A stretch of 32,000 bases of DNA, taken from the NCBI RefSeq assembly GCF_000017845.1, contig NC_010546.1, positions 990,001 to 1,022,000 of the forward strand, in the 5' to 3' direction. The notes beneath the pieces are model-generated. The model was not told the origin of the DNA. It saw nothing but the letters and a program-made list of their open reading frames with translations, and ran no database searches. Within the stretch, counting starts at the first letter, position 1; each line of letters opens with the position of its first letter. Origin of the DNA: Crocosphaera subtropica ATCC 51142. GTDB taxonomy: Bacteria > Cyanobacteriota > Cyanobacteriia > Cyanobacteriales > Microcystaceae. The position numbers were made by a program, and so were the translations under genes. This document shows positions 10,057 to 26,405 of the stretch, in pieces.

Positions 10057-10168
10057 TCTGTTTAGTTCCTAATAATTGTTAAGTATTCAAACAAAGTGAG
10101 ATTTTTCTAACAGAGATCCTTATAATGCCTTTTGTTTAGATTTATAGATTCAGACAGGAGTTAAACCC

Positions 10169-10444
10169 ATGCTCTCGAATATCATCATACTTGCTGAGGC
10201 CACTTCTGCACTCACAACCCCCTGGAATTTGTCTGTAGGGATGATTATGATTACCGCTAATCTATTTAGCTTTATTCTGGGTTATTTTGCCATCCAAAAA
10301 ACAGGTGCAGGGCCTGAACTTCCTTTACCTCAGTTAGCCTCAAAGAAGAAATTTGGACTCCCAGAATTATTGGCAACTGCTAGTTTTGGTCATATTATAG
10401 GGGCCGGAATTATACTGGGTTTATCTAATGCTGGTCTTCTGTAA
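10169..10444 (+). CDS. psaK: Photosystem I subunit PsaK
   Basis: 91 aa with two TM helices. The conserved C-terminal block is LLATASFGHIIGAGIILGL. AGGAG lies about 8 nt upstream of the ATG. Confidence 0.9.
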   Translation: MLSNIIILAEATSALTTPWNLSVGMIMITANLFSFILGYFAIQKTGAGPELPLPQLASKKKFGLPELLATASFGHIIGAGIILGLSNAGLL

Positions 10445-16269: not shown

Positions 16270-17532
16270 TTATCCCATCATATTAGTAAAGAAATCAATA
16301 GTTTCTTTTAAAACCATGACAAATTGATCAATTTCTTCATAACTATTATAAAAATATAAACTGACTCTCGCACTTCCTGAAGCATTAAATAAACGGTGTA
16401 AGGGTTGGGTACAATGATGTCCGGAACGAATAGCAACTCCTTCATGATCTAACAGCGTTGATAAGTCACTTCCGTGAATTCCTGGAATATTAAATGCAGC
16501 CAAAGCAGCCCTTCCTTTTCCTTCTTTTGTGGGTAGAGGTCCATAAATTCTCAGGTTAGGAACTTCCTCCAATTTACGAAACAAATAACCGGTTAATTCT
16601 TCTTCATAAGCATGAATTTTATCCATGCCAATATGGGTTAAATAATCAACCGCTGCCCCTAAAGCGATCGCTTCTCCAATAGCGGGGGTTCCGGCTTCAA
16701 ATTTATGGGGTAATTCTCCACAAGTAAAGCCATCAAAAAACACTTCATCAATCATTTCCCCACCCCCTAAAAAGGGAGGCATGGCTTCTAAAATTGATTG
16801 CTTTCCGTACAAGAAACCCACCCCCGATGGACCACACATTTTATGGCCACTGGCCACTAACCAATCACAGTCCATTTCCTGGACATTAATAGGCATATGG
16901 GGAACACTTTGACAAGCATCAATTAATACTTTAACTCCCTTTTCGTGGGCTAATTTAATGACTTCTTCAACAGGATTAATACAGCCTAATGTGTTAGAAA
17001 CATGAACGATAGTGACTAATTTAGTTTTATCCGATAACAAGGATTTGAAAGCGTCTACATTAAAGCTTTCGTTCTCAGTTAATGGCACATATTTAATCAC
17101 TGCCCCGGTTTGTTTCGCAATAATTTGCCAAGGAACTAAATTACTGTGATGTTCCATCACAGAGGTAATAATTTCATCCCCTGGTTGCAGATGATTTAAA
17201 CCCCAACTATAGGCAACCAAATTAATCGCTTCGGTGGCATTTCTGGTGAAAACAATTTCTTTTGAAGAAGCAGCATGAATAAACCTAGCTATCTTATCTC
17301 TTGCCCCTTCATAAGCTTCTGTTGCCCTCACGCTTAAAGTATGGGCCCCACGATGAACATTGGCATTATCTTTTTCATAGTAATGACTTAGGGCATCGAG
17401 TACCGCTACAGGTTTTTGAGACGTAGCAGCATTGTCTAAATAAACTAAAGGCTTACCATGAATTTCCTGATGCAAAATTGGGAAATCGTTGCGGACTTTT
17501 GAAGCTAGGGTTTTTTCTTGGATAGCAGTCAT
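16270..17532 (-). CDS. sufS: Cysteine desulfurase, SufS type (class V aminotransferase, group II)
   Basis: 420 aa. Contains FPIL...[11 protein letters not shown], the PLP lysine context SGHKMCGP, and the active-site region RSGHHCTQP. Confidence 0.95.
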
Positions 17533-17577
17533 AATGAAGTTAGAATTCAGAAGTTTTCTTATATTTAGAGGTCTAAT

Positions 17578-18927
17578 TTATGCTTCTGCGGTACGACAAA
17601 CCACACATTGAGTTAATCGTTGTTGCAAAGATTCCAGGGGAATCCGTTCTAAAATTTCAGTGGCAAAGGCATCAATTAAAAGATGACGGGCATCGGTTTC
17701 ATTTAAGCCCCGACTCTGTAAATAAAAGAGTTCATCGGCTTCTAATTGACTAATAGTTGCCCCGTGGGAACATTTAACATTATCTGCCGTAATTTGCAGT
17801 TCTGGTTTAGTATTAATTCGGGCTTTAGGTGACAGCAATAAATTACGGTTTAATTGGGTTGCATTGGTTAATTGTGCTGGTTTGGGAACAAAGATTTTGC
17901 CATTAAAAACCCCACGACCATTACCATCAATAATACACTTATGTAATTGATGGGTAATACCATAAGGATGATTCAGACAAACAGCAGTATGAGTATCCGC
18001 TAGTTGTTCATGATCAATCATGGTTAACCCATTAAGATGGGTTTCGGTTTGTGTTCCTTGTTGCCACATTTGTAGGGTATGACGAGATAGTTTTGCCCCT
18101 AAATTAACTTCGTTACAAGTGTAGTGACTATCTTGATTTTGGCTAATGGCACTCTTGCCAATGTGAAAGCTATCTCCTAACTCTCTTTGAATACGACTAT
18201 GATTAATCTGGGCATTATTATCTAACCAAATTTCTGTTACAGAATTGGTAAAATAAGGTTGATTCTTTTCATCATCTGAACAAGATTCTGTTACCGTGGC
18301 ATAATACTCAACAAATGATAAACTAGATCCAGTTTCTGCTATGACTAAAGTTCTCGGTTGTATTAAGCTTGGAGTCTCGTTACCAACGGTAAGAAAGAGC
18401 AATTGAATGGGGGTTTCAACTACAATATTTTTGTTAACCCAAATCACCGCAACATCCTTAAAACCGGCTGTATTTAAGGCGGTAAATGCGTCTTTTTCTC
18501 CTTCTTGTTTCCCTAAGTAATCAGCAATTTTATTGTTTTTTGGGTCGGGTAAATCACTTAGGTTACCCACATAGATGTCTTCAGGTAACTCAGATACATT
18601 AGACAACTCAGAACTATATTCCCCGTTAACGAAAACAAGGTAACTTTGTTGGGCTTCAGGTAAGATAAAATTATCAATAATACTTTGAGTAACTGTCTCA
18701 GTCTTCGCTGTTTGAAATTCTAATTGGTATAATTCCGATAAATCCGTAAACCGCCATTCTTCATCCTTTTTGCTAGGAAGGGTTAATTCTTGAACTTGAG
18801 AAACGGCATTTTTCCTTAAGGTTTGCATATACCCAGTGTCAATGATGGGAGCATTAGCTTGACACTGTTGTAATAAATTGGTTAGGCAGGTTTCTGGACT
18901 GGTTTTGTCGAGGGTTGGGTTATTCAT
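17578..18927 (-). CDS. sufD: Fe-S cluster assembly protein SufD
   Basis: 449 aa. Contains EEWRFTDLS near the N-terminus. The C-terminal beta-helix block is LLLSPKARINTKPELQITADNVKCSHGATISQLEADELFYLQSRGL. It lies 45 nt upstream of sufS. Confidence 0.92.
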   Translation of the reverse strand: MNNPTLDKTSPETCLTNLLQQCQANAPIIDTGYMQTLRKNAVSQVQELTLPSKKDEEWRFTDLSELYQLEFQTAKTETVTQSIIDNFILPEAQQSYLVFVNGEYSSELSNVSELPEDIYVGNLSDLPDPKNNKIADYLGKQEGEKDAFTALNTAGFKDVAVIWVNKNIVVETPIQLLFLTVGNETPSLIQPRTLVIAETGSSLSFVEYYATVTESCSDDEKNQPYFTNSVTEIWLDNNAQINHSRIQRELGDSFHIGKSAISQNQDSHYTCNEVNLGAKLSRHTLQMWQQGTQTETHLNGLTMIDHEQLADTHTAVCLNHPYGITHQLHKCIIDGNGRGVFNGKIFVPKPAQLTNATQLNRNLLLSPKARINTKPELQITADNVKCSHGATISQLEADELFYLQSRGLNETDARHLLIDAFATEILERIPLESLQQRLTQCVVCRTAEA

Positions 18928-21635: not shown

Positions 21636-22277
21636 ATGAATAGTTTAGCGTCAGTTGACATGAAAGCGATCGCACCTCAATTAATGACTTATCCCATTGT
21701 AGAAATCTTTCACTCCTTGCAAGGAGAAGGGACATGGACAGGGATGAGTGCTTTTTTCATTCGTTTAGCCGGGTGTGATGTTCATTGTCCTTGGTGTGAC
21801 CAAAAAGAATCATGGACAAGCAAAATATATCCCCAACAGTCTATTAAAACCTTAGCAGAAGCAGCCAAAGCAGCTAACCCTGCCATGGTGGTTATTACAG
21901 GGGGAGAACCCTTGATGTATGATTTATTCCCCCTAACCAAAGCATTAAAAAAGTTAGGGTTACGGGTTCATTTAGAAACTTCTGGGGCCTATCCCTTTAG
22001 TGGTCAGTTCGACTGGGTTACCTTGTCACCTAAACCGTTTAAAGTTCCCCATGAAAGTATCTATCCCCAGGTTAATGAATTAAAGGTTGTCATTACTAAT
22101 CAAGAGGACTTCCACTGGGCAGAAGAACAAGAGAAAAAGGTTCCTCCTCAAGCCCTTAAATACTTACAACCTGAATGGAATTATCCCGAAAGTCAATCTT
22201 TAATTTTTGATTATATTCGTAAGGCTCCTCAATGGCGTATGAGCTTACAAATTCATAAATTTTTAGGAGTTAGATAA
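21636..22277 (+). CDS. queE: 7-carboxy-7-deazaguanine synthase (radical SAM)
   Basis: 213 aa. Contains YPIVEIFHSLQGEG and the radical SAM cluster CDVHCPWCD. The true start may be an internal Met (21660 or 21684). Confidence 0.88.
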   Translation: MNSLASVDMKAIAPQLMTYPIVEIFHSLQGEGTWTGMSAFFIRLAGCDVHCPWCDQKESWTSKIYPQQSIKTLAEAAKAANPAMVVITGGEPLMYDLFPLTKALKKLGLRVHLETSGAYPFSGQFDWVTLSPKPFKVPHESIYPQVNELKVVITNQEDFHWAEEQEKKVPPQALKYLQPEWNYPESQSLIFDYIRKAPQWRMSLQIHKFLGVR

Positions 22278-22316
22278 GTACCTAAACATAATTAATTACA
22301 CAATAAGTGAATTGAC

Positions 22317-22338
22317 AATTGCATCGATGCAATTTTTA
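22317..22338 (+). terminator. Terminator candidate after queE
   Basis: Palindrome aattgcatcgatgcaatt followed by ttt. Confidence 0.55.
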
Positions 22339-22342
22339 ATCC

Positions 22343-22421
22343 TTTTCTTTATTAACAATAGAGATTATTAGTTGAGGTAAGCAGAGGGAGCAAAGTAAGC
22401 AGAGGAAGCAGGGGAGATAAA
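22343..22421 (+). repeat. Dispersed repeat family, copy C (tail partly duplicated)
   Basis: ttttctttattaacaatagagattattagttgaggtaagcagagggagcaaagtaagcagaggaagcaggggagataaa. The gtaagcagagg segment occurs twice. Confidence 0.75.
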
Positions 22422-22566
22422 AGATTATCTGCAAAAATGGGATGCTCTCCTAAAGAAGTTGATTAGTATACATAAGATCAATTATCATTAAAGGGTAACC
22501 ATAGGGGTAATGTCCTGACAGGGGATCGACTGAACTTAATCCTGAACCACAAGGAAATAGAGAATT

Positions 22567-23100
22567 ATGAATCAAGCTTCTGTTGCAACAACTGATGAAA
22601 ACCAATTGCAAGTAGCTGAAGAAAAACTCATCCAATTTCTCAACGATCATAGTGAAATTGAGATGATTCTTCCCGTTATTCTAGGTATCTTTATTACCAG
22701 TCGCTTGCAATTGAGGGGAGCCAACGCACTGATTGTTAATTTGGCCATTGCTAGTATTTCTCGTCAAATCTTTACTAACCTTAAAAACATAACCCCTACA
22801 GTACCTGTTAGTAGCTCTAACGGAGTCAAAACAGCAAAAGCTCAAGAAGATAGCCTATATACTATCGTTCACTCTGTTCCTGGAAGAATTCGCATTAAAA
22901 TTCCTAGACTCAGCCAAGATATAGAATTTTGTGAGATTTTATCCCAATTATTAGCAGAAGATGATCATGTTATTGAGGCTCGTATTAACCGAGCAGCCGC
23001 CTCAGTGGTTATTCATTATGAAGCTCAAGGATTATCGGATGTTGAATTAGGCTTGCGCTTATTAAATCTTATGAACAGAGCAGAAGAAGCTGTGTCATGA
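22567..23100 (+). CDS. Membrane protein with a C-terminal CxxC-less HMA-like domain (PGRxRxK motif)
   Basis: 177 aa with hydrophobic segments at about residues 33-68. Residues 100-152 align without gaps to residues 7-59 of the downstream ATPase, with about 24 of 53 identical by hand. It lies 40 nt upstream of the ATPase. Confidence 0.72.
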   Translation: MNQASVATTDENQLQVAEEKLIQFLNDHSEIEMILPVILGIFITSRLQLRGANALIVNLAIASISRQIFTNLKNITPTVPVSSSNGVKTAKAQEDSLYTIVHSVPGRIRIKIPRLSQDIEFCEILSQLLAEDDHVIEARINRAAASVVIHYEAQGLSDVELGLRLLNLMNRAEEAVS

Positions 23101-23140
23101 AACAAAAAAATCACCTCCTCAAAAATTCCAATCATCTCCC

Positions 23141-25255
23141 ATGAAGACTATTCCCCAGATTATCCATCATATACCTGGAAGAGTCAGATTTCGTATCCAT
23201 CGTTTAAGCTATGATCGGCGTTTTGCTCTGCGTCTAAAACAACTTTTAAAAGCAGCATATCCGATTCAAACTGTTCGCTTAAATGATTGGGCTGCTTGTG
23301 TTGTCATTGCTTATCATGCTAAAAAAGAGTTCGATATTGAGACATATATCATTCATCTTATAGAAAAAGCAGAAAGTTATCATTATCTAATTGCAGAAAA
23401 TAAAGCCAATAATCCCCTAGAAGAATGGTCAAGTTTAACTCTCCCTAGTTTAGCTACTCTACTAGGGTTTGGAGCCAGCAAATTACCCATTCCTGGATTA
23501 AAACTAATCGCTAGTTTAATGTTACTAAAGGCTGCTTTCCCTGTGGTCAAAAGAGCTTATGAAAGTTTGTCCTCTGAACAAAAAATAAATATCGATTGTT
23601 TAGATAGCTTAGCTTTACTATTTAGCGGTTTACAAGGACAAATGGTCACCCCGGCCTTAGTCATTACCCTACACGAATTAGGAGATATTATTCGGGAAAA
23701 AACCGCTCGTTCCACAGAAATAAAAACCAGCAATTTATTGGATACCATTGGTCATTTTGCTTGGGTTGAACAAGATAACCAAATTATCCATGTTGAAAGT
23801 CATCGGGTAGAAATTGGGGATACGGTGGTCGTTTATCCAGGAGAAAGTATTCCCGTAGACGGCAAAGTCATCAAAGGAAAAGCTATCATTGATCAACAAC
23901 AATTAACAGGGGAATCTATGCCCATTGTGGCAGAAAAAGACAGCTATGTTTATGCTTCTACCCTATTAAGATCCGGGGAAATTCGCATTAAATGTGAGAA
24001 AGTCGCTTATGAAACCCGTGCAGCAGCCAGTATCGAACTCCTAGACAAAGCCCCCGTCCATGACACCCGTATGGCAAACTATGCAGCCAATTTAGCCGAA
24101 CAATTAATGATGCCATCCCTATGCTTAGCTGGCATGATTTTAATCATTACGAAAGACCCCCAACGGGTGGCTTCTATTCTGACCTTAGATTTTGTCACAG
24201 GAATTCGGGTTTCTATTCCTACCGCCTTTTTAGGGGCATTAAACCACACCACTCGCCACGGGATTTTAGTCAGAAGTGGTCGGACGTTGGAACTGTTATC
24301 AGAAATTGATACCATTGTCTTCGATAAAACCGGAACCCTAACGGAAGGAAATATTAAAGTTGTGGGGGTAGAAACCGTCAGAGAAACATTAGATCCTAGA
24401 ACCCTTGTTCAGTTAGCAGCATCGGCTGAACAACGCATTACTCACCCCGTAGCCGAAGCGATCGCCCATTATGCCCAACAGGAAAACATTGATATTTTAC
24501 CCCGTGACCATTGGGACTATGAGGTGGGGTTAGGGATGGTGGCCACCATCATAGGAAAAACCATATTAGTGGGGAGTAAAAAGTTATTAATCAGTAAGGG
24601 AGTAATTATCCACGAAACCGAGAAAATGCAAGAAAAATCCGCATTATCTCCGATTTATGTCGCTTGTAATGGAGAATTTCAGGGCATTATTTACTATACT
24701 GATCCCCTCCGTCCCCAAAGTGCTAAATTAATCCATCACTTACAACATCAGTATGATATTGAAGTTCATTTGCTCACAGGAGACAATCAAACACGGGCGA
24801 CAGAAGTAGGTAAACAGTTACAGATTCCCCTGTCTAACGTCCATGCAGAGGCGTTTCCCGAAGATAAAGCTAGAATTGTCAGTGGCTTACATCATCGGGG
24901 TAAAACCGTCGCTTTTGTGGGGGACGGCCTGAACGACTCGGTAGCCTTAGCCTATGCAGATGTGTCCATCTCCTTTGAAAATGGGTCTGATATTGCTAGA
25001 GACACCGCCGATGTGGTGTTAATGAATAATGACCTAACGGATTTGTTAGAGGCGATCGCCATTGCCAAAGAAACCAAAGCCTTAATTAATCAAAATACCC
25101 TGATGGTGGTTGCCCCCAACTTAGCAGCCTTAGGGTTAGCCACCACCGTTGGCCTTAACCCTTTATTAGCTACTCTGGTTCATAATGGAACGGCCATCGT
25201 TGCCGGACTGAATAGTTTACGGCCTCTTGTTCAACATCATCTAGAAACCAATTAA
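23141..25255 (+). CDS. P-type ATPase, P1B-like architecture, atypical (no CPx-type transmembrane metal motif)
   Basis: 704 aa. Motifs: TGES (256-259), DKTGTLT (395-401), P1B-style HP dipeptide (ITHPVAEAI), TGDN, GDGLND. The N-terminal domain is HMA-like but lacks CxxC. FVT (nt 24191-24199) sits where CPC/SPC is expected. Confidence 0.92.
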   Translation: MKTIPQIIHHIPGRVRFRIHRLSYDRRFALRLKQLLKAAYPIQTVRLNDWAACVVIAYHAKKEFDIETYIIHLIEKAESYHYLIAENKANNPLEEWSSLTLPSLATLLGFGASKLPIPGLKLIASLMLLKAAFPVVKRAYESLSSEQKINIDCLDSLALLFSGLQGQMVTPALVITLHELGDIIREKTARSTEIKTSNLLDTIGHFAWVEQDNQIIHVESHRVEIGDTVVVYPGESIPVDGKVIKGKAIIDQQQLTGESMPIVAEKDSYVYASTLLRSGEIRIKCEKVAYETRAAASIELLDKAPVHDTRMANYAANLAEQLMMPSLCLAGMILIITKDPQRVASILTLDFVTGIRVSIPTAFLGALNHTTRHGILVRSGRTLELLSEIDTIVFDKTGTLTEGNIKVVGVETVRETLDPRTLVQLAASAEQRITHPVAEAIAHYAQQENIDILPRDHWDYEVGLGMVATIIGKTILVGSKKLLISKGVIIHETEKMQEKSALSPIYVACNGEFQGIIYYTDPLRPQSAKLIHHLQHQYDIEVHLLTGDNQTRATEVGKQLQIPLSNVHAEAFPEDKARIVSGLHHRGKTVAFVGDGLNDSVALAYADVSISFENGSDIARDTADVVLMNNDLTDLLEAIAIAKETKALINQNTLMVVAPNLAALGLATTVGLNPLLATLVHNGTAIVAGLNSLRPLVQHHLETN

Positions 25256-25288
25256 TTTTGTCCAATTCAATTTAGGAGTTCTTTACTC

Positions 25289-25516
25289 ATGTCATTGATT
25301 CACTGGGATAAATCTGTTTTCAGCTTACACCTCAAAGAAATCATTGAAGATCATCATCAAAAAGGTGATTCGAGTGGAGTTGTTGGTTTAGGGGCAATTT
25401 TACTGGGAACCATTGCCCTTCCGGCTGCTGCTAAATATAGTCGTCCCATTCTGAAATCTGTGATTAAAACAGGAATCGCTTTGTCCTACGAACTGTCTGA
25501 AAAAAAGGGTAAATAA
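25289..25516 (+). CDS. Small membrane protein, paralog of the 25653-25964 ORF (DUF5132-like by recollection)
   Basis: 75 aa. AGGAG lies 10 nt upstream, and the gene starts 33 nt after the ATPase stop. Contains GLGAILLG...P...RPILKSVIKTGIAL. Confidence 0.65.
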   Translation: MSLIHWDKSVFSLHLKEIIEDHHQKGDSSGVVGLGAILLGTIALPAAAKYSRPILKSVIKTGIALSYELSEKKGK

Positions 25517-25518
25517 CG

Positions 25519-25552
25519 TAAGTTCGGAGTTCGGAGTTCAGAGTTTAACTAC
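25519..25552 (-). repeat. STRR-like heptamer tract (reverse orientation of the 6847-6880 tract)
   Basis: agttcgg agttcgg agttcag agtttaactac. Its reverse complement aligns with gtagttgcactccgaactcctaactccgaact. Confidence 0.7.
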
Positions 25553-25594
25553 ACAGAAAATTTTCACAACTCATTTAAACTGGCTATAGTGAAT

Positions 25595-25624
25595 AGTTAA
25601 TAGTTATCTAACTAACTATTAACT
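25595..25624. terminator. AT-rich hairpin between convergent genes (possible bidirectional terminator)
   Basis: Perfect 11-bp arms, agttaatagtt (25595-25605) and aactattaact (25614-25624), with an 8-nt loop. There is no clear U-tract. Confidence 0.4.
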
Positions 25625-25652
25625 CAAATTCCTATGCTATGTACCCAGAAAA

Positions 25653-25964
25653 CTAATCTTCAATGCCATTAAGACCCTCTGATTTAGCCGTGGGAAGGGC
25701 ATTTCTTTGAGCTTGTTCGGCAATGACTTCTGCCTTGGCTTCTGCAACAATATCTCCCATGACTTCCCCTGCTTCGGCTAAGGTTCCCTTGGTTTTTTGG
25801 TATAAAATTACCCCAGTTTTGACCGTTGCTTTGGCTACAGGTTTTAAGAGGGGAAGAATAACGGGGGTTAAGACTAAAGCCCCAACTCCAATAGCAAGGG
25901 TACGATTAGGATTGTCCTGATAAGCTTTTTTTAAGGATTCTAACATTTTATATTCCTCATTCAT
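25653..25964 (-). CDS. Small membrane protein with an amphipathic Ala/Glu-rich tail (DUF5132-like by recollection)
   Basis: 103 aa. Contains IGVGALVLTPVILPLLKPVAKATVKTGVILY followed by AEAGEVMGDIVAEAKAEVIAEQAQ. It shares the [RK]P[IV]xK[SA]x[IV]KTG[IV]xL block with the 25289 ORF. Confidence 0.7.
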   Translation of the reverse strand: MNEEYKMLESLKKAYQDNPNRTLAIGVGALVLTPVILPLLKPVAKATVKTGVILYQKTKGTLAEAGEVMGDIVAEAKAEVIAEQAQRNALPTAKSEGLNGIED

Positions 25965-25993
25965 TGACTGGACTAATGCCTGCCTTATTAACT

Positions 25994-25999
25994 ATTATA
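25994..25999 (-). promoter_or_regulatory. Candidate -10 box (TATAAT) for the 25653-25964 gene
   Basis: A perfect TATAAT on the minus strand ends 29 nt upstream of the ATG. No good -35 element. It is wedged directly after the rbp terminator. Confidence 0.3.
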
Positions 26000-26013
26000 T
26001 CGGTAATTTTAAC

Positions 26014-26050
26014 GAATAAAAAACACGCTTTTTTTTAAGATTAAAAGCGC
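26014..26050 (-). terminator. Rho-independent terminator candidate of the rbp gene
   Basis: On the minus strand: cgctttt-aatcttaaa-aaaagcg, followed by tgttttttatt. Confidence 0.6.
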
Positions 26051-26108
26051 GAAAAAAGATACTAAACTATAATAAATATACTGTCAACAGTTTCTCAGCA
26101 GAATTTGA

Positions 26109-26405
26109 CTAGGAAAAACTTCCTTGCTTACGAAAACTACCGGAACCGTTGCGGCCTGAATTCTCACGAGGTTTCGCTTTATTAACTCTCATTTGTCGCC
26201 CCATCCAGTCAGCCCCGTCTAAGGTTTCAATGGCGGCAGTTTCTTGGTCATCACTTTCCATTTCCACAAAACCAAACCCTCTGGGTCTTCCTGTTTCGCG
26301 GTCTGTGGGTAGAGATACCCGTTTAACTGTGCCGTATTCGCTGAAAACCTCTGTTAAATCTTCAGACGTTACATCATATACTAAGTTGCCTACATAAATT
26401 GTCAT
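26109..26405 (-). CDS. RRM-type RNA-binding protein (cyanobacterial Rbp family)
   Basis: 98 aa with RNP2 IYVGNL and RNP1 RGFGFVEM. It has a short Gly/Ser/Arg tail. Confidence 0.94.
   Translation of the reverse strand: MTIYVGNLVYDVTSEDLTEVFSEYGTVKRVSLPTDRETGRPRGFGFVEMESDDQETAAIETLDGADWMGRQMRVNKAKPRENSGRNGSGSFRKQGSFS

Follow-up and report, generated by a model that had tools for sequence, protein, structure and literature searches.

A cysteine-less P1B-type ATPase with CoBaHMA and DUF5132 partners in Crocosphaera subtropica: a conserved module that probably handles iron

The genome of Crocosphaera subtropica ATCC 51142 contains a compact four-gene module built around an atypical P1B-type ATPase, and this locus raises the question of which cation is moved by a pump devoid of cysteine at its ion site, and how its small membrane partners contribute. 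The module occupies positions 22567-25964 of the window, the whole stretch of 32,000 nucleotides (nt) that was analysed (NC_010546.1, positions 990,001 to 1,022,000 of the forward strand); all coordinates below refer to it. An original prediction, made from the letters alone, had compared the module with the fez (ferrosome) operons. We find that the module probably handles iron, because its relatives usually have it beside ferrous-iron uptake genes, and we propose, with a probability of about 50%, that Feo uptake and the pump work in series, the pump removing Fe(II) or a different hard divalent cation from the cytosol.

Three of the four genes lie on the + strand, packed like an operon, and may be co-transcribed. 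Open reading frame (ORF) and Pfam analyses identified gene 1 (22567-23100) as encoding a membrane protein of 177 amino acids (aa) with a CoBaHMA (HMA_2) domain at its C-terminus, and gene 2 (23141-25255) as encoding the 704-aa P1B-type ATPase cce_1010, also recognised by TIGR01525. Gene 3 (25289-25516), assigned by BLASTP and iterated hidden Markov models (HMMs), produces a shortened, 75-aa single-pass protein of the DUF5132 family. Gene 4 (25653-25964, - strand) converges on the other three and encodes a further DUF5132 protein of 103 aa counted from the first ATG; RefSeq places its start at Met7 (position 25946), which gives 97 aa, and the product matches a C. subtropica protein at 100%. Genes 1 and 2 are 40 nt apart and genes 2 and 3 are 33 nt apart, and the ATG of gene 3 (25289) is preceded at 10 nt by an AGGAG ribosome-binding site (25274-25278, + strand). 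All these elements were re-found where the original prediction had placed them.

Gene 2 belongs to the P1B family, since TIGR01525 (NCBIfam) matched with 489.3 bits against a cut-off of 346, and its Pfam domains are E1-E2_ATPase, Hydrolase and HMA_2. The catalytic motifs are intact (TGES256, DKTGTLT395, H435-P436, TGDN546 and GDGLND594). The protein contains no CxxC, CPx or SPC motif and has neither Cys nor Pro at the metal site of transmembrane (TM) helix 4: in an alignment with A. fulgidus CopA, the ACPCA sequence corresponds to DFVTG, part of the motif L349-D-F-V-T-G354 (24185-24202, + strand) that takes the place of CPC/SPC. TM6 carries H681-N-G-T684 (25181-25192, + strand), which follows the H-N-x-(S/T) pattern described as a hallmark of the P1B-6 and CtpC groups (PMC13460109). 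H681-N-G-T-A matches this pattern, yet Ala occupies the position of the threonine in HNxxT, and the nearest upstream Asn in TM5 is x20 from HN, compared with x18 in N-x18-H-N-x-(S/T). Across 46 orthologs, D350, F351, V352, T353 and G354 are invariant, as are H681, N682 and G683 of TM6. The candidate ligands among the invariant TM residues of this set are all oxygen or nitrogen (O/N) donors: D350, T353, N652, N660, H681 and N682, also D152, D155 and H178.

The AlphaFold2 (AF2) model of the pump (predicted local distance difference test, pLDDT, 69) shows 8 TM helices, with the M4 helix broken at residues 349-350 (L349-D350). Among solved structures, CopA, ZntA and sCoaT come closest. These canonical P1B pumps (CopA 4bbj/7r0g, ZntA 4umw, sCoaT 7qbz) have the same fold, 8-TM topology and catalytic motifs, whereas the window pump lacks CPC/SPC, a CxxC domain and a soluble chaperone and is only 22-30% identical to them. 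The claim that canonical TM metal ligands are lacking therefore stands for TM4, where no CPx/SPC is found, and has to be amended for TM6, where one signature (HNGT), common to P1B-6 and CtpC, is kept. The Pfam scan found no metal regulator or chaperone gene among the other ORFs of the window. With neither CxxC nor CPx/SPC in the pump and no regulator or chaperone nearby, the locus is not a copper, zinc or cobalt cassette, as had been argued. Taken together, the motifs suggest that the gene 2 product is a functional pump whose site is free of thiols, a relative of FezB outside P1B-6.

The pump has an entry in Supplementary Table 1 of Grant et al. (10.1101/2020.01.10.902569), where cce_1010 of Cyanothece ATCC 51142, the former name of C. 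subtropica, is listed with DFVTGIR, HNGTA and HHIPGRVRFRIH, three strings identical to those of the window pump. The colour group of cce_1010 in that table is apart from FezB (D[YF]SCA/HNxxT), from the D[FY]xCG group and from the CtpC group (ACPCA/HNxS[ST]). An exhaustive homolog search, reduced to 150 representatives at 50% identity, produced classes of TM4, TM6 and N-terminal motifs matching those of Grant et al. In a neighbour-joining (NJ) tree built with 124 near-full-length representatives and 60 bootstraps, FezB-type sequences were separate in 60/60 replicates and the window pump fell in an 82-member Cys-less clade in 52/60. All D-x-x-T-G sequences are in this clade, and the FezB, D-x-x-C-G and CPC sequences are all outside it. 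We interpret it as a cysteine-less sister clade of FezB and CtpC, characterised by D-F-V-T-G in TM4 and H-N-G-T in TM6. The ATPase had been predicted to stand outside the characterised subgroups, and both the table and the tree place it in an unnamed Cys-less clade. The further suggestion that the pump is itself of the P1B-6/FezB kind was not upheld: it has no D[Y/F]SCA motif, it is outside FezB in the table of Grant et al., and FezB is split from it in all 60 bootstraps.

The conservation of the neighbourhood was analysed by a one-genome-per-species scan, which gave 53 cyanobacterial loci, 51 of them containing full-length orthologs (52-86% identity) that were used for counting. Features were counted by seed-based HMMs on six-frame ORFs, and limiting the gene-1 HMM to ORFs of at most 420 aa left the counts unchanged; all counts are lower bounds because several contigs end within the neighbourhood. 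On the strand of the pump gene, a CoBaHMA gene was found no more than 2 kb upstream at 43/51 loci and a DUF5132 gene no more than 500 nt downstream at 38/51; a convergent second DUF5132 gene was found at 27/51, so that the small genes singled out in the window are conserved beside the orthologs. Exactly the window layout, with the upstream CoBaHMA gene and both DUF5132 genes, is present at 24 of the 51 loci. Being recurrent in dozens of genomes, the arrangement is far beyond chance. No DUF5132 gene was found at 20 unrelated CPC/HEGST pump loci. The distant loci L059-L079, considered as fez clusters, were rejected on account of their CPC/HEGST pumps and served as negative controls. A Gloeothece plasmid with a 43%-identical paralog also keeps the triad, as does a relative from a Melainabacteria metagenome-assembled genome.

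The same loci provide the link to iron. The available flanking DNA of 27 ortholog loci contains feoA/feoB, immediately upstream and in the same orientation at 24 of them. A DUF2202 ferritin-like gene, a known component of fez clusters (10.1101/2020.01.10.902569), is present at 5 loci. In Microcystis, Picosynechococcus PCC 11901, Capilliphycus and Geminocystis, HMA_2 and DUF5132 genes stand beside the pump and feoA/feoB lie within a few kb; the Picosynechococcus PCC 11901 locus additionally has a DUF2202 ferritin-like gene and a nearby fur gene. We therefore hypothesize that the cation moved by the pump would be Fe(II), possibly another hard divalent such as Mn(II), and that it would be delivered to the periplasm or to a membrane compartment inside the cell. 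The pump would act downstream of FeoAB uptake, since roughly one in two orthologous loci has feoAB in the same gene string. With importer and P1B exporter encoded in one gene string, vectorial transfer to a different compartment would be more plausible than a futile cycle across a single membrane.

How far the comparison with ferrosomes can be taken was assessed against the fez clusters with their P1B-6 ATPase FezB (Grant et al., 10.1101/2020.01.10.902569; Pi lab preprint, PMC13307979). As in fez, the pump has an N-terminal R-rich/HMA_2 domain, a TM4 motif opening with D-[F/Y] and H-N in TM6, the domain of the pump recurs in a separate protein (FezC/FezD there, gene 1 here), several small single-pass membrane proteins are encoded, and the orthologs of the window module have feoAB linkage and an occasional DUF2202 ferritin-like gene. 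Unlike FezB, the window pump has DFVTG in TM4 instead of D[Y/F]SCA and is outside the FezB group in both the table and the tree, and its AF2 model has 8 TM helices compared with the 6 reported for FezB (10.1101/2020.01.10.902569). The order of gene 1, with the TM hairpin at the N-terminus and the domain at the C-terminus, is the reverse of that in FezC. The small proteins also differ, being DUF5132 members without GxxxG inside the TM segment; the segments of genes 3 and 4 contain only the small-xxx-small motifs SGVVG, AILLG and AIGVG. Fez clusters are described as confined mainly to anaerobes (2026 preprint), whereas the window module is in an oxygenic phototroph and is not known to be linked to granules.

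A 1.7-Mb replicon of Vibrio sp. THAF190c (L082, 4833-9049) proved to contain a complete fez-type cluster that carries no annotation in PLSDB. It encodes two stand-alone HMA_2 proteins, a FezB with DYSCALK/HNGTT and three small Gly-rich membrane proteins, one of them weakly YtxH-like. Homology of DUF5132 to these small Vibrio Fez proteins was considered and rejected, with an hhalign probability of about 0.3%. The likeness to fez seen in the original prediction is thus retained for the domain logic, the companion R-rich protein, the small membrane proteins as a feature and the feoAB link in orthologs, and is lost for the identity of the small proteins, as DUF5132 is not detectably related to those of Vibrio. 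The iron-gene association is that of the ortholog loci (27/51 for feoA/feoB, 5/51 for DUF2202), the window itself having just sufS/sufD 4-6 kb off. Collectively, these comparisons indicate a module that is apparently related to fez and is not a fez cluster. That cyanobacteria use this Feo-coupled, Cys-less CoBaHMA pump and DUF5132 scaffolds to build a ferrosome-like, membrane-bounded Fe(II) store is a speculative extension that we consider clearly unlikely. If it were true, the store could provide Crocosphaera, which fixes nitrogen at night, with a temporary depot for iron shuttled daily between photosynthesis and nitrogenase.

Genes 1 and 2 have a domain in common. HMA_2 matched residues 99-175 of the gene 1 protein with 38.6 bits (Pfam gathering score 30), next to an N-terminal, conserved hydrophobic hairpin at about residues 29-70 that includes a TM-like segment (31-49). 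Gene 1 carries the R-rich motif VHSVPGRIRIKIPRL. In the gene-1 family (54 homologs), His102, Arg107 and Arg109 are each 98% conserved, K/R111 and Arg139 are 91% conserved, and CxxC is found in none of the members. The pump starts with the same domain (23150-23377, + strand; residues about 4-79, with the motif HHIPGRVRFRIHRL), as seen from the HMA_2 match and the AF2 model. Over 74 aa, the end of the gene 1 protein and the start of the pump share 41% identity (E = 9e-13). The HMA_2 match of the pump (residues 4-74, 28.0 bits) is slightly below the gathering score of 30, and orthologs of the pump are annotated with PF19991 (HMA_2) in precomputed annotation. In this way, the CxxC-less HMA-like domain claimed for gene 1, its recurrence at the start of the ATPase and the 'HMA2' label given to it all proved right, the last with gene 2 just under the gathering score.

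In the AF2 model, the N-terminal domain of the pump consists of beta6-11, beta14-18, alpha26-38, beta42-48, beta53-58 and alpha66-79, and is predicted to adopt a ferredoxin-like fold with an additional beta0 strand. A Pfam match, a conserved beta0 His, basic beta1/beta2 residues and no CxxC were found, the His and the basic residues being the CoBaHMA signature of PMC8890360. The same motif was independently noticed by Grant et al. (10.1101/2020.01.10.902569) as the 'R-rich motif' of FezB, FezC, FezH and CtpC, and HMA_2 N-termini are common to FezB-like pumps, CtpC-like pumps and the clade of the window pump. The initial description of CoBaHMA came from calcyanin, a marker of intracellular calcium-carbonate formation in cyanobacteria, in which it forms the N-terminus (PMC8890360; bioRxiv 10.1101/2024.07.07.602159).

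This origin of the domain brings in a different role for the pump, as part of the machinery for intracellular amorphous calcium carbonate (iACC), in which Ca(II), or Sr/Ba, would be moved into the inclusions with CoBaHMA and DUF5132 partners. Many calcyanins have CoBaHMA as their N-terminal domain (PMC8890360), and in Microcystis aeruginosa PCC 7806 two DUF5132 and two CoBaHMA genes flank ccyA, some of them co-expressed with it (bioRxiv 10.1101/2024.07.07.602159). As in the window, the ccyA region combines DUF5132 with proteins in which CoBaHMA is fused to a membrane hairpin of helices, and the AF2 picture of DUF5132 is the same, a TM helix followed by a long soluble helix. The ligand set made of O/N donors only would suit a hard cation, and a marine Synechococcus paralog is near a gene for a GDT1 Ca/Mn transporter. 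In contrast, the described partners in the ccyA region are calcyanin and a Ca/H exchanger, with no P1B pump among the immediate neighbours (Bruley et al.), whereas a P1B ATPase is the core of the window module and its ortholog linkage is to feoABC. The Microcystis pump is itself at a feo locus. No likeness to calcyanin or to a Ca transporter was found among the window ORFs scanned against Pfam, and the linkage of the orthologous subclade is with feoABC instead of cax or ccyA, although no ccyA survey of the ortholog genomes was made. We give a calcium role very little credence.

A role other than metal transport, with a different substrate or mainly as a regulator or membrane-remodelling factor whose CoBaHMA partners sit on anionic lipids, would fit the absence of the conserved TM4 proline and cysteines. 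Anionic lipids were reportedly proposed in 2024, by Gaschignard and colleagues, as the partner of the CoBaHMA basic patch. Such domains are fused to lipid-metabolism proteins, and a lipid kinase gene is near the Gloeothece paralog. The catalytic motifs and the invariant polar TM residues at canonical ion-site positions are strongly conserved, however, the M4 helix is broken at the ion site in the AF2 model, and the relatives FezB and CtpC are metal pumps, all of which makes a pump without a metal substrate decidedly improbable.

In Capilliphycus/Limnoraphis (L004, 12493-13866; L022; L045), a further pair without a pump, a longer CoBaHMA protein (327-348 aa) and then a DUF5132 gene (~100 aa), is found a few kb from the module. 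This pair suggests that CoBaHMA and DUF5132 form a unit able to serve non-ATPase partners.

Gene 4 is a clear member of DUF5132 (PF17195), with 69.4 bits against a gathering score of 25 (E = 2.7e-19), while the match of gene 3 is faint (12.5 bits, E = 0.16). The two genes are paralogs all the same (BLASTP, E = 6e-6), and iterated HMMs started from either gene retrieved an identical set of 91 ORFs. Both the proposed paralogy and the proposed DUF5132 label are therefore correct, gene 3 joining the family through BLASTP and iterated HMMs. Each small protein has one TM-like segment. The gene 4 protein opens with a short helix and has its TM segment at residues 22-40; a basic amphipathic stretch then leads to a Glu/Ala-rich helix built around the core GDIVAEAKAE. 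Its AF2 model (pLDDT 76) is all-helical over residues 3-89. The invariant residues of the family are G28, P34, K41, P42, A44, K45, K57, E64, E67, D71, A74, E75 and E79. Its consensus, which contains no His or Cys, comprises a Gly/Ala-rich TM segment (G26 and G28 near-invariant), the basic stretch P-x-x-K-P-x-A-K-A-x-I-K-x-G and the core G-D-I-V-A-E-A-K-A-E. The copy at the position of gene 3 has a median length of 101 aa elsewhere, and the E/A helix is kept in most genomes.

This organisation resembles that of the PacL (DUF1490) scaffolds, which stabilise and cluster CtpC/CtpG of M. tuberculosis and bind the N-terminal domain of the pump via Glu/Ala repeats (PMC13460109). Like PacL, DUF5132 is a protein of ~95-100 aa, encoded beside a pump, in which a Gly/Ala-rich TM segment precedes a Glu/Ala-rich helix, and both families have a common D[IV]VAEA[KR] core. 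Like CtpC, the window pump has an HMA_2-like N-terminal domain without CxxC (25-28 bits in both) and H-N-x-(S/T) in TM6, and genuine DUF1490 genes abut CtpC-type pumps with an HMA_2-like N-terminus. The PacL architecture (single TM segment, Glu/Ala-rich region, gene beside a CxxC-less P1B pump) is matched by gene 4, and gene 3 does not have the E/A region. A comparison of DUF5132 with DUF1490 by hhalign gave a score of 19.9 (E = 0.016), with DIVAEAKAE and DVVAEARER as aligned cores, and this score was reached by 0/200 column shuffles and 0/200 segment-preserving shuffles. Single-sequence comparison of DUF5132 with PacL is too weak, the signal is solely one of profile against profile, and a common ancestry of the two families is possible and unproven.

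The two systems also differ. The TM4 of CtpC keeps CPC, whereas the window pump has DFVTG. PacL belongs to DUF1490, its gene is upstream of the pump and it often has a His-rich metal-binding end, whereas DUF5132 has no His/Cys and is encoded downstream or convergently, in two copies. No stand-alone CoBaHMA membrane protein such as gene 1 is described for the mycobacterial system. By analogy, PacL nevertheless appears to be a closer parallel for the small proteins than fez, and this functional parallel is the best available model for DUF5132. We propose that the two DUF5132 proteins would act as PacL-like single-pass membrane scaffolds or chaperones, and that their acidic Glu/Ala-rich helix may dock on the basic face of CoBaHMA. 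Two such domains would be available, the N-terminus of the pump and the membrane-anchored gene 1 protein. Docking could stabilise, cluster or regulate the pump, and gene 1 and the DUF5132 proteins would organise or regulate it.

The same parallel can be read as pointing to a general metal-detoxification efflux platform similar to the CtpC-PacL1 'effluxosome', exporting a soft or borderline toxic metal (Zn, Cd, Co or Ni) across the plasma membrane with no particular link to iron. CtpC is in the same wider HMA_2-bearing HNx(S/T) group and exports zinc with a PacL scaffold, the DUF5132/PacL likeness extends to the small proteins, and the window has no feo neighbour. The TM4 site weighs the other way, because CtpC keeps CPC and a site free of Cys and Pro, as in the clade of the window pump, is a poor fit for thiophilic metals. 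Moreover, DUF5132 has no His/Cys metal-binding tail, no metal-sensing regulator is nearby, and many orthologs are directly downstream of feoABC, which is hard to reconcile with a Zn/Cd pump. We consider such an efflux platform unlikely, with a small but real chance of being correct.

Several observations weigh against export of Fe(II) or another hard divalent cation in series with Feo. The substrate of the pump is not readable from sequence. No feo gene is beside the module in the window or in the closest Crocosphaera relatives, where the linkage has been lost, so that the iron link rests on the orthologs. No match to the Fur box was found in the window (19-mer consensus, up to 3 mismatches), and a search of 22200-26200 for riboswitches and other known RNAs gave no hit at E <= 1. 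Other paralogs of the clade adjoin GDT1, SDF transporter or bestrophin genes, without feo. As the triad is present in Gloeothece and Melainabacteria and these other paralogs have no feo, the CoBaHMA/DUF5132 partnership is general to the clade and the Feo link is specific to the orthologous subclade of the window. The accessory pair is not iron-specific, because paralogs occur in other contexts and CoBaHMA/DUF5132 genes flank ccyA. The proposed binding of the CoBaHMA basic patch to anionic lipids also counts against the model. The scaffold part of the model is also affected: gene 3 has no Glu/Ala-rich helix, the hhalign probability for DUF5132 against DUF1490 (PacL) is just 2.8%, and none of 57 DUF5132 members gave a Pfam DUF1490/DUF6110 match at E <= 10.

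The pump represents a P1B subgroup without a thiol ligand, without a known substrate and without a solved structure. A sister of the ferrosome pump, with the same domain logic and an operon-level link to ferrous uptake, is widespread in oxygenic cyanobacteria, and its hosts include bloom-formers and marine nitrogen fixers, in which iron economy is ecologically decisive. The CoBaHMA and DUF5132/PacL-like families tie together ferrosomes, mycobacterial effluxosomes and cyanobacterial calcium-carbonate inclusions, a connection of three topics that leads to a concrete testable hypothesis for the role of these domains. If the ferrosome-like reading were true, CoBaHMA and DUF5132/PacL-type proteins could be a universal adaptor pair that gathers P1B pumps and proteins of biomineralisation into organelles or membrane microdomains, as in ferrosomes, effluxosomes and calcium-carbonate inclusions. 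The pump clade (unnamed, in a tree) and the CoBaHMA and DUF5132 families are already published. No paper was found on this conserved operon, its cyanobacterial Feo linkage or the DUF5132-PacL parallel, and searches on cce_1009 to cce_1012 and on Feo with a P-type ATPase in cyanobacteria returned nothing specific; the literature searched thus contains no description of the function of this combination, as the original prediction had supposed.

In this genome, the module is flanked by a queE-like radical-SAM gene and a gene for an RRM protein. The Fe-S cluster assembly genes sufS and sufD (16270-18927, - strand) are 4-6 kb upstream; they are the sole iron-related genes near the module, and their closeness may be a coincidence. 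Between the convergent genes 3 and 4, an AT-rich, perfect 12-nt inverted repeat (25595-25624) may be a bidirectional terminator, and three tandem heptamers, GTTCGGA GTTCGGA GTTCAGA, are found right after the stop of gene 3 (25522-25542). A perfect 18-nt palindrome, AATTGCATCGATGCAATT, is located at 22317-22334, ~230 nt 5' of gene 1, nested in a longer imperfect inverted repeat (22302-22349) and operator-like in appearance. As a conserved operator it was rejected, being absent from 79/79 loci scanned, related Crocosphaera loci included. A direct repeat 5' of gene 1 (22378-22413) consists of 2 copies of ~18 nt, GTAAGCAGAGG(G/A)AGCA.

Thermosynechococcus BP-1 and Cyanothece PCC 7425 are carbonate formers as well. 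Several ccyA carriers (per PMC8890360), among them Synechococcus RS9917, Chlorogloeopsis fritschii PCC 6912 and Microcystis PCC 7806, have extra paralogs of the Cys-less clade with NNG[ST]/SNGAT in TM6 (table of Grant et al.). At the Microcystis locus L001, a 54-aa Lys-rich ORF (10160-10324) precedes the DUF5132 gene and overlaps the pump gene at its stop codon; only 3 homologs were found in the loci compared, and the window has no equivalent. Finally, a distant clade member of 847 aa (P0181) was found on a metagenome contig (L087, 312-7532) in a string of same-strand genes that begins with an FtsZ/tubulin-like gene; the string also contains several small ORFs and the genes for an HMA_2 protein and an SDF-family transporter. 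The Melainabacteria pump (L083) is likewise followed by an SDF gene, and the cytoskeletal gene of the metagenomic cluster recalls organelle-positioning systems.

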